Shown piece after piece: positions 4,160-9,880 of a DNA stretch of 64,000 nucleotides. Under the pieces are notes generated by a model. The model made no database searches and was not told the DNA's origin. It worked only from the letters and a program-made list of their open reading frames with translations. This DNA comes from a virus. The stretch's first letter is position 1. The number at the start of each line of letters is the position of its first letter. The stretch lies in IMG/VR virus record IMGVR_UViG_3300018080_000099, positions 64,001 through 128,000 of that record; one strand, 5' to 3'. The position numbers and the translations under genes were made by a program.

Positions 4160-4720
4160 ATGAACTGGTTGGAAATCAGCGCAGTCGTATTCGGGTTTCT
4201 CTGTGTCTTATTCACCATAAGGCGTAATATATGGTGTTGGCCTTTAGGACTTATCCAAGTCCTCCTGTACATTTACATTTTCCAACAGGCGAAGCTGTAC
4301 TCTGACATGATTCTCCATGTAGTGTATGTGTTCATGCAGATATACGGCTGGTGGTTCTGGTTGAAGGGCAGAGATGGAGGCAAGTCACTGATTACCAATG
4401 TCATGTACTTCCCTATATGGATTGTAGGCTGTTTGATTGCTACAACTCTGTGGGGTTTCGGGATGGACAATCTTACTGACGCAGCTCTACCGTACTGGGA
4501 TGCCTTTACCACCGTGGCAAGTCTCATAGCTCAGTATCTTCTGTGTCGGAAGAAGCTTGAGTCATGGTACTTCTGGATTGCCGTGGATGTCGTGGCAATC
4601 GGTGTCTATGCCTATAAGGAACTGTACTTCACCTGTGGCTTGTACGCTTGCTTCCTTGTGATGGCAACCATTGGACTTCTGTCATGGAAGAAAGCCTTTG
4701 CTAAGGGTGAAGCAATATGA
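4160..4720 (+). CDS. pnuC: nicotinamide riboside transporter PnuC
   Basis: 186 aa, MNWLEI start, W/Y-rich multi-TM pattern (WCWPLGL, YGWWFWLKG) typical of the PnuC family. Confidence 0.75.
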   Translation: MNWLEISAVVFGFLCVLFTIRRNIWCWPLGLIQVLLYIYIFQQAKLYSDMILHVVYVFMQIYGWWFWLKGRDGGKSLITNVMYFPIWIVGCLIATTLWGFGMDNLTDAALPYWDAFTTVASLIAQYLLCRKKLESWYFWIAVDVVAIGVYAYKELYFTCGLYACFLVMATIGLLSWKKAFAKGEAI

Positions 4721-4902
4721 AATGTCCAGCCTGTCACGGTGCCGGAGGCGACTGGGAGCCTGTATTGTATTACGGCTTTGGTGGTGGCCCTTGGGAGAAG
4801 TGCTGGGCTTGTAAGGGATGGGGTTTCTTGCGGAACCGGAAGTTCTACTACCGTGTACTTGGATGGCTGAGTTGGCTGTCGAATAAAAGGAGAAAGAAGT
4901 AA
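4717..4902 (+). CDS. small CxxCxGxG (DnaJ zinc-finger-like) protein
   Basis: 61 aa; CPACHGAGG and CWACKGWG motifs. Confidence 0.45.
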   Translation: MKCPACHGAGGDWEPVLYYGFGGGPWEKCWACKGWGFLRNRKFYYRVLGWLSWLSNKRRKK

Positions 4903-5162
4903 TGGCACGCGGAAACTACATGATTCTGTGTTGGGACCACAAGGCTCCTAATAACAGTCACCGTTGTTCCCAAATGGGTTCCTTGAACTTGGTGAAAATC
5001 AGTCGTAGAAAGGCTGAAGAAGTCAATGAAGTAACCAAAGAATGCCGGGGAAACCATTTGGAAACATGGCTCTTGACTGAGAAACAAGCCAGAGAACTCC
5101 ATGCCAACATGGGGAGAAAGCTGGATTTTCTTGATACCTTAAAGAAAGAGGGGAAGGCATGA
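4902..5162 (+). CDS. hypothetical protein
   Basis: 86-aa ORF in the same-strand gene train. Confidence 0.35.
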   Translation: MARGNYMILCWDHKAPNNSHRCSQMGSLNLVKISRRKAEEVNEVTKECRGNHLETWLLTEKQARELHANMGRKLDFLDTLKKEGKA

Positions 5163-5567
5163 AGTACGTGTACCTTATCATCGGTGTGGTTATCGGCTGG
5201 TTCGTCCGTAGCTACTTCAATGAAGAAGAGTGGATTTCGGAAGAGCAGTGAGATACGTCTGGGAAATCCTTGTACCTCGCAAGTCCAATGAGGGCAGACC
5301 ATTCCGGCTCCGCCATCATCGGGTGTGGGATGCTAAGGTCAAGGAAATCACCGGGGGCTTAACGATACTGGTACCGACTGTCAAAGGCGAATGGACTTCG
5401 GATGAGGGGGAAGTCTTTATCGACAGTACGATACCAGTTCGTTTAAGCTGTTCCCGCGAAGAAATCGAAACTATCATGGACTTCACCGCAAAACATTACA
5501 GCCAACTGGCTGTGATGGCTTACAAGATAAGCGATGAAGTTCTTATCAAAAATATTAAGGAGGAGTC

Positions 5568-5813
5568 ATGGACATCCAAATCACTTTACTCATTGTTGGC
5601 GGTATCATTTCCATTGCCCTTATCATTGCCATTGCATCTTACAAATGCATGAAAATCCAAGCATCTCAGGACTACGAGAACATGCGTCAGCGCTATCAGG
5701 AGCAATCCAATACGCTTCGTGAAAAGGACAATGAAATCGAAAGGCTCTCACGAATCATTGAAGCTATGTTCGAAAAGGACAAAGTCAACATCGACATCTC
5801 TCAAAACCAATAA
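5568..5813 (+). CDS. small membrane-anchored coiled-coil protein
   Basis: 81 aa; N-terminal TM (ITLLIVGGIISIALIIAIA) followed by a charged helical tail. Confidence 0.45.
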   Translation: MDIQITLLIVGGIISIALIIAIASYKCMKIQASQDYENMRQRYQEQSNTLREKDNEIERLSRIIEAMFEKDKVNIDISQNQ

Positions 5814-5831
5814 CCAAGAAAGGAGCTTCTT

Positions 5832-6215
5832 ATGAAGAAGTTCATCGTACTGTTGCTTGCCCTCGTCACCCTCAGCCATGCAGGCGGACTCTGGGTTGAC
5901 TCATACATCGACGTTACCCACGACACCGAAAGCTGGGCTTCAATCGGTGACACCTACTACGGATGCCAGAAGATTGGCGCATCCTTCAAGTACGGTGATG
6001 TCTTTCTCAGTCACTATCAGTATGGTTTCTATGGTGACAATTCCCTTATGACAAACTTCGGCCTCGGTATCAAACGTGGCTGGGAAATCAAGAAAGTCTA
6101 TATTGAAGGCTTTCTGATTGGACAGAGAGACTTCAAAGCCGAAATCAATTCCATCTGGGCTGGCTGTTATGTCAAGGCCGACCTCTTCTCATGGGGAAAA
6201 GCGGAGGAATCTTGA
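5832..6215 (+). CDS. secreted protein with signal peptide
   Basis: MKKFIVLLLALVTLSHAGG signal peptide; RBS AAGGAG upstream. Confidence 0.55.
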   Translation: MKKFIVLLLALVTLSHAGGLWVDSYIDVTHDTESWASIGDTYYGCQKIGASFKYGDVFLSHYQYGFYGDNSLMTNFGLGIKRGWEIKKVYIEGFLIGQRDFKAEINSIWAGCYVKADLFSWGKAEES

Positions 6216-6303
6216 CAACAGCACACAACAGGCCCAGCCCAACATTAAAACGTCGGGCGAGTGGCGCGGACGTTGTGCGCCATGTCAACCTTTGGAGTAT
6301 TAT

Positions 6304-7786: not shown

Positions 7787-7837
7787 AACGTTGGTGTAAA
7801 TATTTAATTCACAATTTTAAAGTTTTTGGGAGGTTTT

Positions 7838-8053
7838 ATGTTTAAACCGGGAGATATTGTTGTAACGAAAGCTCAGCTAGACGAAACGTATGGTATTAAA
7901 AAGTTCACCGTGGTTGATGTTCTTACTTCTGCTAATAGTGAATGTCTCATACTTAATTTGTCGTTTCTTGATAGCATGGGTGTTCCAAGGAGTGTGTTCG
8001 CCGATGCGCTTGGTTTCTGCCTTGCTCCCAAAAAAGAAGAAAAGGAATCTTAA
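7838..8053 (+). CDS. small hypothetical protein
   Basis: RBS GGGAGG then ATG (MFKPGDIVV). Confidence 0.4.
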   Translation: MFKPGDIVVTKAQLDETYGIKKFTVVDVLTSANSECLILNLSFLDSMGVPRSVFADALGFCLAPKKEEKES

Positions 8054-8267
8054 ATACATCCACCAACAAACGTATGGTCAAAATGCTGTAAATCGCACTT
8101 CGCCATACTCAACCGTTGGCTGAGGACTGGCTTCAGCCAATTTTCACCACTATTCCTTGCCGTTGCAATCCTCCGTGTCCTACCATCCCCGAAGAAGAAG
8201 AAGTTCCGAAGTTTGAAAAGATGGTGAACGATGAAATTGCTAAGGTAAGGGAAGAAAGAATAGCTGA

Positions 8268-8498
8268 ATGGAAATCACGTTCTGGGGAATAATCTGGGTC
8301 AATGTAGTAATCGTGTGGGCGGGCCTTGGCATGTTCGGAACCTACTACTATGGGACTCGGGTTATGAATCATAGGGTAGGAGACCTTGACGGCATTTTTC
8401 AAATTGTCCTTTGTGGTATTATATGTGGAGCTTTGACATGGTTCTTTAACTTCGAAACAATGGCAAGGAACCATAGAAGGAGACAATCAAGGGACTGA
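8268..8498 (+). CDS. small membrane protein
   Basis: 76 aa with two hydrophobic helices. Confidence 0.35.
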   Translation: MEITFWGIIWVNVVIVWAGLGMFGTYYYGTRVMNHRVGDLDGIFQIVLCGIICGALTWFFNFETMARNHRRRQSRD

Positions 8499-8517
8499 AA
8501 ACAATCAAGGAGCATCC

Positions 8518-8763
8518 ATGACAACTACCATAACCAAAGATGAAGCAATGAAAGCGGTTGAGAGGTTCCGTCAACTTCTCAGTAATCGGGACTTTTGGCT
8601 ACAGCCCTCCGCCGAAAGAGCCAAAGCTATCAACGAACTCAACAGCGCATATGTCAACTGCGAACCTATTGAGGGAGAAGAAGCAGACTTTATCAAGAGT
8701 GCTCATTCAGTTGCCATAGCTGAGTATCAATCAAGAAGGCAGATATTGGGACTAGCACTATGA
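8518..8763 (+). CDS. hypothetical protein
   Basis: 81 aa, RBS CAAGGAG. Confidence 0.45.
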   Translation: MTTTITKDEAMKAVERFRQLLSNRDFWLQPSAERAKAINELNSAYVNCEPIEGEEADFIKSAHSVAIAEYQSRRQILGLAL

Positions 8764-8902
8764 GCAATTGTTCAAGTTGTGGCAGTCCAATACCCGAAGG
8801 ACAGGGCTCATTATGTTCAATGTGTTATGGCGACATTGAGCATGGTTCTGACGGATATTATCGACAATGGGCTGAAGAACAAATGAGACAGGAGCAAGAG
8901 CA

Positions 8903-9880
8903 ATGCGACCGGGACTAACATTAGGGAAGTACGCACCTTTCCATCATGGACACCATTATGTCATTACAAGGGCTTTAGAGGAAGTCGAAAAGCTCATAGT
9001 ATTGGTATATGATGCTCCTTCTACGACTGATATTCCCGTGTCGGTTCGAGCTGAATGGGTGTCTAAAATTTTTCCGAAGGTCGAAGTTCTCATAGGTTAT
9101 GGAAGTCCTGAGGTTACCGGCATGGACAGGAAAATTCAGCGTATCCATGAAGAATACATTAAGTCCATGCTGGGTGGGCGGCGAATTGAAGCTTTCTTCT
9201 CTAGTGAGCCTTACGGGGAGCATGTGAGTAGAGCTTTGAATTGCCAAAACTACTTAGTGGATGAGGCGAGAAGTTTTGTGCCGGTGACTGCCACAATGAT
9301 ACGTGAGAACCCGTTCCAGTATAGGAGTTATCTGAATCCCATCGTTTATCGGTCGTTCGTGAAGAATGTGGTGTTCCTCGGTGCTCCCTCGACTGGTAAA
9401 TCAACTCTCGTTGAAGCCTTAGCAAAAGAATACGACACCATTTTCATGCCTGAATACGGCCGAGAGTACTGGGATGAGCACCAACAGGACAAGCGCTTGA
9501 CGTTGGATGACCTCAATACGATTGCTAAAGTCCACATTGAGCGTGAGGATGCTCGCATTTACAATGCCAACAAGTACATGTTTACAGATACAAATGCCAT
9601 CACAACGTACTTATTCTCCATGTACTACCACGGATATGCCGACCAATTCCTTTGGTATCTGGCTGACGAGTGCTATAAGCGCTATGACGTGGTGTTTCTC
9701 TGTGACGAGGACATACCTTACGATGATACATGGGACAGGTCTGGAGAAGCTAACAGGCACATGTTTCAGCGAATGTATTACGACTACCTAGCTGTCCATA
9801 AGATACCGTTCACCCTGTTGAGTGGGAATCTGGAAGCTAGGATGAAAAAGGTCAAAGATGTTCTTGACAATTCCCTTTAG
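8903..9880 (+). CDS. nadR: NadR-like bifunctional NMN adenylyltransferase / ribosylnicotinamide kinase (no HTH domain)
   Basis: N-terminal nucleotidyltransferase motif GKYAPFHHGHHYVI (HxGH); C-terminal P-loop GAPSTGKSTL; 325 aa. Confidence 0.75.
   Translation: MRPGLTLGKYAPFHHGHHYVITRALEEVEKLIVLVYDAPSTTDIPVSVRAEWVSKIFPKVEVLIGYGSPEVTGMDRKIQRIHEEYIKSMLGGRRIEAFFSSEPYGEHVSRALNCQNYLVDEARSFVPVTATMIRENPFQYRSYLNPIVYRSFVKNVVFLGAPSTGKSTLVEALAKEYDTIFMPEYGREYWDEHQQDKRLTLDDLNTIAKVHIEREDARIYNANKYMFTDTNAITTYLFSMYYHGYADQFLWYLADECYKRYDVVFLCDEDIPYDDTWDRSGEANRHMFQRMYYDYLAVHKIPFTLLSGNLEARMKKVKDVLDNSL

Follow-up and report, generated by a model that had tools for sequence, protein, structure and literature searches.

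A predicted NARP3-type nicotinamide riboside salvage locus with a conserved orphan gene in an uncultured phage lineage

Among the outcomes of bacterial defence against phages, depletion of nicotinamide adenine dinucleotide (NAD+) is one of the most frequent, and the success of such defences is decided by phage routes that rebuild it. The locus described here raises the question of whether an uncultured large phage carries such a route, where its genes came from and which gene products belong to it. It lies in a stretch of 64,000 nucleotides (positions 64,001 to 128,000 of the IMG/VR record IMGVR_UViG_3300018080_000099; hereafter the window), whose plus strand encodes a PnuC-type transporter of nicotinamide riboside (NR), an orphan protein that we call X, and a bifunctional NadR without the helix-turn-helix (HTH) domain. 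We propose, with a probability of roughly 0.75, that the transporter and the enzyme constitute an NR salvage module of the NARP3 type, which would refill NAD+ while a phage of about 264 kb infects its host.

NARP3 consists of Bas30_86 (NadR-like) and Bas30_87 (PnuC-like) from T5-like Escherichia and Salmonella phages (Yan et al., Sci Adv, August 2026; PMC13464706), and the pairing of a phage PnuC with an HTH-less NadR had been proposed earlier (Osterman et al. 2024, bioRxiv 10.1101/2024.02.11.579819). The T5-like pair restores NAD+ and rescues the phage from Sir2-HerA in an NR-dependent manner, with an EC50 of 3.6-5.6 µM (PMC13464706). In the window, PnuC, an inner-membrane carrier working by facilitated diffusion, would admit external NR; the ribosylnicotinamide kinase (RNK) domain of NadR would phosphorylate it with ATP to nicotinamide mononucleotide (NMN), trapping it, and the NMN adenylyltransferase (NMNAT) domain would adenylate NMN to NAD+. 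Without an HTH repressor domain, the route would be phage-controlled and unregulated, free of NadR-type transcriptional control. Given NR outside the cell, the refilled NAD+ pool could then sustain replication under NADase-type defences.

Transporter, enzyme and layout of the locus

The PnuC gene (4160-4720, plus strand) encodes 186 amino acids (aa) that form a minimal Pnu core of seven transmembrane (TM) helices. It matches PF04973 (NMN_transporter) across profile positions 1-175 of 175 (E 9.3e-57) and exceeds the cutoff of the PnuC equivalog model TIGR01528 (104.9 bits; cutoff 42.45). Further matches were obtained to phrog_1880 and to the Neisseria mucosa PnuC structure 4QTN (E 5e-14); the enterobacterial subfamily model NF011926 scored below its cutoff (84 vs 335). 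Hydropathy analysis gave six clear hydrophobic segments and a weaker one at about residues 110-130, which fits seven TM helices. No additional N-terminal helix is present; in Pnu proteins this helix has been linked to trimerisation by Jaehme et al. (PMC5749112).

The Pnu family includes carriers of different substrates, among them thiamine and riboflavin carriers, and has the ligand motif WxxW(x)3D/N (PMC5749112). This motif is kept in TM6 of the window protein (W136-Y-F-W139-I-A-V-D143), where D143 stands at the position of Bas30_87 N180 and Q60 corresponds to Bas30_87 Q94. Tryptophans of the gate are found after TM3 (W64/W65/W67) and after TM7 (W176). Linkage of pnuC to nadR is a classical indicator of NR specificity, and together with the equivalog model it points to NR as the probable substrate. 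An earlier note on this DNA, made from the sequence alone, had called a PnuC at this position; its coordinates proved exact, on the plus strand, and the full-length PF04973 match and the TIGR01528 score above cutoff confirm the call.

The NadR gene (8903-9880, plus strand) encodes 325 aa, with the NMNAT domain at about residues 1-145 and the RNK domain at about 150-325. The kinase part matches PF13521 (AAA_28) at residues 156-313 (E 1.1e-31), and the protein also matches phrog_3462, annotated as nicotinamide-nucleotide adenylyltransferase (1e-58). Solved NadR structures were also recovered, namely 8X7F of E. coli (1e-31), 9X6F (2e-27), 1LW7 of H. influenzae (2e-26) and 6GYE. Here, too, the coordinates given in the earlier note were exact, and the HxGH motif (H14-H-G-H17) and P-loop that it had read from the sequence are present, alongside these profile and structure matches.

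For the catalytic motifs, we aligned seven sequences: the window NadR, one copy each from a related phage and from a bacterial operon, three homologues from databases, and Bas27_0092 of a T5-like phage. Both NMNAT signatures, GxFxPxHxGH and TxTxIR, are intact in the window protein (G8-K-Y-A-P-F-H-H-G-H17 and T129-A-T-M-I-R134), and G8, K9, P12, G16, H17, T131 and R134 are invariant across the alignment. On the RNK side, the Walker A segment G160-A-P-S-T-G-K-S167, D229 and the D278-R-S280 segment are invariant or conserved. With Bas27_0092 as numbering proxy for the crystallised Bas30_86, window residues K9, F98, S100, E215 and D262 are the equivalents of Bas30_86 K10, F110, S112, E230 and D275. 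Alanine changes at these Bas30_86 residues, some of them in double or triple mutants, lowered NAD+ regeneration by NARP3 (PMC13464706).

The description of this NadR as HTH-less was borne out. It aligns to NF005988, a model of full-length NadR, only from profile position 67 (of 411) onwards, its first NMNAT motif lies as early as residue 8, and the gene has no upstream in-frame extension; a hidden HTH domain is ruled out, as there is neither room for it nor an upstream extension of the open reading frame (ORF). The protein is thus, as judged from its sequence, an enzyme-only form without the regulator domain. It belongs to a divergent HTH-less clade, the cellular members of which are named only "AAA family ATPase" by NCBI. 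That either gene is a chance ORF is excluded by full-length homologues at 55-73% identity. The identity and completeness of both genes and the integrity of their motifs are therefore directly supported.

PnuC and NadR share the plus strand, and both genes of the pair announced in the earlier note are present; they stand 4,182 bp apart, and the note, which took them for a simple pair, overlooked the conserved gene X (5832-6215, plus strand) that separates them. A generic scan of positions 2900-11400 for sigma-70 promoters and terminators performed no better than chance. In contrast, the motif TTGACA-N17-TATATT occurs at 16 sites in the window with at most one mismatch, against 0.54 expected, a count reached in none of 100 shuffles. 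These sites span 793-30739 on the plus strand and 529-59719 on the minus strand, are all co-oriented with the local genes, and delimit transcription units of this phage lineage. Many of them also have a common extended palindromic core, CCTGTACC.T.A.GTATATTATGGTA, perhaps an operator.

The site nearest to PnuC on its upstream side is at 3050-3078 (plus strand, TTGACA-N17-TATTTT, one mismatch), and the next is a perfect TTGACA-N17-TATATT at 9864-9892 (plus strand), the -35 box of which falls in the last NadR codons. Between 3078 and 9864 there is no site of this class with up to one mismatch, and PnuC, X and NadR all lie inside one promoter-to-promoter interval of 6.8 kb. The same motif is found at 21 sites (0.4 expected) in a collinear 253-kb contig, L005, where one site precedes PnuC by 50 bp and the following one comes 1.6 kb after NadR. 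In an Rfam search only tRNAs were recovered, and upstream of the genes neither an NAD+ riboswitch nor a pnuC motif was detected.

Origin of the pair and its possible role in infection

The nearest homologues of the window NadR are HTH-less proteins of 325-360 aa with 52-58% identity from a wide range of cellular lineages, including sequences from Sporocytophaga, Nostoc, Dulcicalothrix and metagenome-assembled genomes (MAGs) of Woesearchaeota; for PnuC, the nearest homologues reach 57-73% identity. In three bacterial MAG contigs (among them JBNKQL010000003.1 and JBNKNS010000003.1), pnuC (195 aa) is followed by nadR (336 aa) with a 4-bp overlap and without X, and these operon proteins are 63% (PnuC) and 52-53% (NadR) identical to those of the window. 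A neighbour-joining tree of NadR, computed without bootstraps, places the window sequence with two phage copies (L005 and L012) beside the cellular HTH-less clade, and T5-like and other viral NadRs appear as distant outgroups. Because of the closer identity to bacterial operons, the gene order and the position in the tree, the window version seems to go back to a bacterial pnuC-nadR operon by a recruitment of its own, and not to the T5-like line.

Linkage of the two genes is also seen in related phages. L005 carries ten ORFs homologous to those of the window in the same order, with PnuC (68% identity), a 122-aa ORF and NadR (57%) back to back, and PnuC and NadR are likewise kept together in L012, L013, L015, L016 and L017. 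A scan of IMG/VR with the PnuC alignment recovered distant viral relatives only, at up to 36% identity, and all IMG/VR contigs retrieved through a PnuC relative (13/13) have a NadR within about 1.3 kb; the same database scanned with the NadR protein alone gave no match. Descent from a type of bacterial operon, linkage in phages and location within one promoter-bounded interval are supported by the sequences themselves. The uptake of NR and its conversion to NAD+, as put forward in the earlier note, gain support from the full-length profiles, the catalytic and ligand motifs and the pnuC-nadR operons as nearest relatives, and may be considered probable on these grounds.

As a concept, the pairing is known: it was hypothesised in 2024, the same year in which jumbo phages were described to carry it, and its characterisation as NARP3 followed in 2026. 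The finding of the earlier note is correct and no longer new. Specific to the window are the apparently separate bacterial-operon origin, the opposite gene order, the minimal PnuC, the spread of the genes over 4.2 kb and the presence of X as a conserved orphan. As in NARP3, a phage encodes a PnuC-type transporter and an HTH-less NMNAT/RNK NadR with the same predicted chemistry from NR through NMN to NAD+, and equivalents of the enzyme residues K10, F110, S112, E230 and D275 and of the transporter residues Q94 and N180 (D/N) are present. In NARP3, however, NadR precedes PnuC in an adjacent two-gene operon with overlapping genes, whereas in the window PnuC precedes NadR by 4.2 kb and the conserved X stands between them; in the relatives, the unit is three genes, PnuC-X-NadR. 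The NARP3 PnuC has 225 aa with an N-terminal extension, in contrast to the 186-aa seven-TM core found here. Finally, NARP3 belongs to enterobacterial phages, whereas the window host is uncultured and apparently not an enterobacterium.

The closest relatives, bacterial pnuC-nadR operons with an HTH-less NadR, share gene order, protein lengths and domain make-up with the window, but serve cellular housekeeping salvage, with a 4-bp gene overlap, nothing between the genes and no X. The canonical trifunctional NadR and the PnuC of Enterobacteria and Haemophilus (8X7F, 1LW7, 4QTN) agree with the window proteins in both catalytic domains and in the fold family of the transporter; unlike the window protein, canonical NadR has an HTH repressor domain at its N-terminus and controls NAD genes. 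There is no linkage between pnuC and nadR in E. coli (PMC13464706). The jumbo phage nhp215, with its pnuC-nadR-nadM cluster, and the "NAD-jumbo phages" (PMC11662467) resemble the window in their jumbo setting and in the clustering of pnuC with nadR. These phages, which come from gut metagenomes and were compared by description, differ from it in that neither nadM nor another NAD gene was found among the scanned ORFs of the window.

NARP1 (Adps and Namat) and NARP2 of Vibrio phage KVP40 (the Nampt NadV and the NMNAT-Nudix protein NatV) pursue the same goal of rebuilding NAD+ against depletion. They reuse intracellular nicotinamide and/or ADP-ribose, whereas the PnuC/NadR route depends on a transporter and on NR from outside. 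Because the products of NADase defences are nicotinamide and ADP-ribose and do not include NR, this route could not recycle them and would be useless without external NR, and this is the first of several points that weigh against NR salvage as a counter-defence. The window proteins are only 25% (PnuC) and 31% (NadR) identical to the T5-like NARP3 proteins. In the gap of 4,182 bp there are at least 11 small ORFs, which means that the two genes are not adjacent, and their co-transcription with X is suggested solely by the finding that no promoter is recognisable between the two.

Further points of this kind concern the enzyme. All three profiles named in the earlier note (NMN_transporter, CTP_transf_like and AAA_28) were matched, with PF01467 (CTP_transf_like) reaching 23.5 bits against a cutoff of 21 (E 7e-5, residues 6-58), but the scores against the curated NadR models fell below their trusted cutoffs (TIGR01526, 184.5 vs 341.15; NF005988, 141.2 vs 201). 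Some residues of the Bas30_86 NMN/NAD+ pocket have no match in the window protein: S37 lies in an insertion that is absent here, and P84 and G89 are not conserved. The NMN-binding loop of the window NadR therefore differs. Bas30_86 D115 could not be mapped via Bas27_0092, and every residue correspondence to Bas30_86 passes through this stand-in.

The substrate, the enzyme activities, the timing of expression and the anti-defence benefit are accordingly predictions from homology and from experiments on the distant T5-like pair. A connection of the window genes to Thoeris, DSR and CBASS, which the earlier note had drawn, would be an extrapolation, since only Sir2-HerA was tested in the NARP3 study (PMC13464706). 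The window does encode a second recognisable anti-defence gene, which counts for the counter-defence role: a homologue of the anti-Pycsar protein Apyc1 (52500-53312, minus strand; PF23023, 107.6 bits vs a cutoff of 50), situated inside the tRNA array.

A possible, though less probable, explanation is that the pair is a general auxiliary metabolic module, by which a large phage with a long and costly cycle raises the supply of NAD+ for reactions of phage and host that consume it, regardless of defence. Such a role was assigned in another setting, where 68 of 174 "NAD-jumbo phages" carry pnuC and this was read as independent NAD+ synthesis (PMC11662467). It would also suit the accessory neighbourhood of the locus, which is rich in metabolic and repair genes (thioredoxin, radical SAM enzymes, RtcB, the tRNA set), and a host for which no NAD+-depleting defence is known. 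However, general supply is compatible with a counter-defence role, and the sole experiment on a phage PnuC/NadR pair found a benefit that depended on the defence. Nor did the scanned window ORFs (64 of about 264 kb) include an NAD+ ligase, an ADP-ribosyltransferase or a Sir2.

Among about 50 window ORFs, we likewise found no Nampt, NadD/E/M or Nudix gene, and the only related product is a macrodomain protein of the OARD1/TARG1/YmdB type (49511-50002, minus strand; 2FG1 at 6e-7, 4J5R at 2e-6; Pfam Macro just under cutoff). This protein is possibly an ADP-ribose-binding or ADP-ribose-removing enzyme, which would tie it to NAD+-derived signalling or modification.

A different chemistry, in which the carrier imports another vitamin or nucleoside or the NadR-like protein keeps only its kinase (the host completing NAD+ synthesis, or another nucleoside being phosphorylated), is improbable: Pnu members do vary in substrate (PMC5749112), the NMNAT part matches CTP_transf_like weakly, the curated models are missed and some pocket residues are not conserved, but TIGR01528 is passed by a wide margin, both NMNAT signatures are intact and invariant in the seven-sequence alignment, and the genes derive from, and remain linked like, a pnuC-nadR operon.

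If NR salvage is correct, the window locus takes the NR-based NARP3 route beyond the T5-like phages of enterobacteria, the sole group in which it has been characterised to date. A separate origin in an uncultured lineage of phages of about 250-265 kb would suggest that the two functions have been recruited repeatedly and convergently.

The orphan gene between PnuC and NadR

Gene X encodes 127 aa with a predicted N-terminal signal peptide and a mature part predicted to be all-beta. Its N-terminus is signal-peptide-like (MKKFIVLLLALVTLSHA, followed by GG), and aromatic residues make up 19% of its beta-rich mature part. The sequence has no Pfam, PHROG or PDB profile match even at permissive E-values and matches no known outer-membrane protein family. 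One structure model resembles an outer-membrane barrel at moderate confidence; the single-sequence AF2 model is poor (pLDDT 45.7), and a Foldseek search against the PDB returned nothing with E < 0.2. On this basis, X is an orphan protein predicted to be secreted and rich in beta structure, and an outer-membrane barrel is the best guess for its fold.

Homologues are rare. A word-indexed search returned only X itself, and when 1.84 billion representative proteins were searched exhaustively with HMMER, only three other clusters emerged. The middle 122-aa ORF of L005 is 42% identical to X (E 2e-26). A metagenome scan added four more loci, giving eight distinct members in all, and IMG/VR scanned with the X alignment gave nothing. 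The C-terminus ends in ...EW-COOH in five of the eight members.

At seven of these eight loci, X lies between PnuC and NadR. The order is PnuC-X-NadR in L005, L013 and L015 as well as in L016 and L017, where the X ORF overlaps both neighbours; in L012, a 74-aa ORF stands between PnuC and X, and in the window the three genes are spread over 4.2 kb. The eighth locus, L014, has X alone (2310-2684), with neither PnuC nor NadR in the 2.3 kb before it and the 3.3 kb after it, and shows that X is able to persist without these genes nearby. L014 is a GC-richer contig of 6 kb, in which X adjoins Hsp20-like, methyltransferase-like and metallophosphoesterase genes. In the other viral PnuC-NadR loci, X was not found (0/13), and it is also absent from the bacterial operons.

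We lean slightly towards the view that X is unrelated to NAD+ and represents a secreted or outer-membrane "moron" (with a role in, for example, superinfection exclusion or receptor masking), which was inserted in an ancestor and inherited with its neighbours. All loci in which X was found come from one phage lineage, and the synteny may be mere descent; to this can be added the solitary copy in L014, the absence from the 13 other viral loci and from bacterial operons, and the fact that the characterised NARP3 functions with two genes only. Set against this, X has held its position between the two genes despite divergence to 32-58% identity, its ORF overlaps both neighbours in L016 and L017, and in the window it stayed between PnuC and NadR despite more than ten inserted ORFs.

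We consider it rather doubtful, though worth stating, that the unit is instead a three-gene module PnuC-X-NadR, in which X is a small secreted beta-barrel serving an envelope step of NR salvage. X would then have been inserted into a captured bacterial pnuC-nadR operon and could provide outer-membrane passage for NR, a role analogous to that of Tsx for nucleosides; alternatively, it might be a periplasmic protein that captures NR. If true, either role would let the counter-defence work at lower external NR. The need for micromolar external NR is the weak point of NARP3, and X, as a predicted envelope protein, is thus a concrete candidate for better NR acquisition that can be put to the test. 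If X is unrelated to NAD+, as we slightly favour, the locus amounts to a correct but ordinary annotation.

The remaining ORFs of the interval are less conserved. Between PnuC and X (4717-5813, plus strand) are ORFs of 61, 86, 30 and 81 aa and an uncalled ORF of 140 aa (5230-5652), for which no Pfam or PHROG match was obtained; the ORFs of this segment are missing from most related loci. About eight small ORFs lie between X and NadR (6304-8918, plus strand) and include members of a small paralogous family ending in ...RQLRAL. They have no counterpart in L005, L015, L016 and L017, where PnuC, X and NadR are contiguous, and are lineage-specific filler. Three of them (6682-6939, 6970-7233 and 7547-7786, plus strand) have the common C-terminal motif ..QSTAI.QIA..ME...W(V/I)RQLRAL and form the local paralogous family. 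Two CxxCxGxG zinc-finger proteins were also assigned to this segment, and DnaJ-type motifs of this form occur in the ORFs at 4717-4902 and 6304-6639.

Source genome and neighbouring genes

Proteins of the window are found in exact form on two metagenomic contigs from different assemblies, with lengths of 263,805 bp (ENA ERZ27256796, contig k141_2651556) and 264,037 bp. By coordinate mapping, k141_2651556 terminates within the window, near position 52,523. The break points of the two assemblies in this one sequence differ, which suggests that the genome, of about 264 kb, is complete and circularly permuted. Megablast of positions 4000-10600 against 50,697 GenBank phage records gave no nucleotide match, and the phage is therefore absent from the GenBank phages.

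The window contains dense small ORFans, HNH endonucleases, three DNA methyltransferases, RtcB, a Ro60-like protein and Apyc1. SprT-like, Phage_lambda_Ea47 and DUF932 genes lie in the flanks, and phage-specific Pfam families also occur in the collinear relative L005. No structural genes were seen among the window ORFs. Its identity as a phage, and as a jumbo phage, is a strong inference from contig size, differing end points, PHROG-type gene content, 47 tRNAs, Apyc1 and the phage Pfam families.

Directly after NadR lies a truncated ABC-transporter ATPase (9967-10500, plus strand), which keeps the LSGGQ signature, Walker B and the H-loop but lacks the Walker A half. Its best 80 genome relatives (60-70% identity) all belong to MAGs of Saprospiraceae, Lewinellaceae or Chitinophagales. 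The Bacteroidota-type promoter motif (TTTG...TAnnTTTG) is not enriched in the window, with 2 matches vs 2.3 expected. The fragment may be a clue to a Saprospiraceae-type host, which conflicts with the canonical -35/-10, sigma-70-type promoters of the phage.

ARAGORN predicted 47 tRNA genes (42 above the Rfam gathering score), comprising a minus-strand array at 47442-63912, which is a near-complete decoding set, and a lone plus-strand tRNA at 34202-34278 with the anticodon CTA (amber-suppressor type). Many tRNAs other than those for Leu, Ser and Tyr are unusually long (83-94 nt), which suggests introns or insertions; RtcB is encoded nearby. This RNA ligase (30860-32209, plus strand; phrog_1075, 1e-122) and a Ro60/TROVE-like RNA-binding protein (36988-38460, minus strand; phrog_850, 2e-87) make up an RNA repair and quality-control pair beside the tRNA array. 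Rfam detected no Y-RNA family in the window.

Accessory ORFs at 10795-11184, 16179-17060, 19666-20559, 57812-59131, 26019-26636, 43894-45294, 29836-30465 and 39431-39916 form a set with a thioredoxin (TIGR01068 above cutoff), three radical-SAM proteins, an HD_4 protein (RelA/SpoT-type hydrolase-like), a RimK-like ATP-grasp protein, a SpoU methylase and an Hsp20. A GluR0-like ligand-gated ion channel is encoded at 18199-19212 (plus strand), with SBP_bac_3 (6e-30) and Lig_chan-Glu_bd (1e-9) split around the K+-channel pore Ion_trans_2 (6.5e-12). The three DNA methyltransferases are located at 27721-28659, 28656-29447 and 45762-46697, and the window also encodes UDG and a DenV-like glycosylase.

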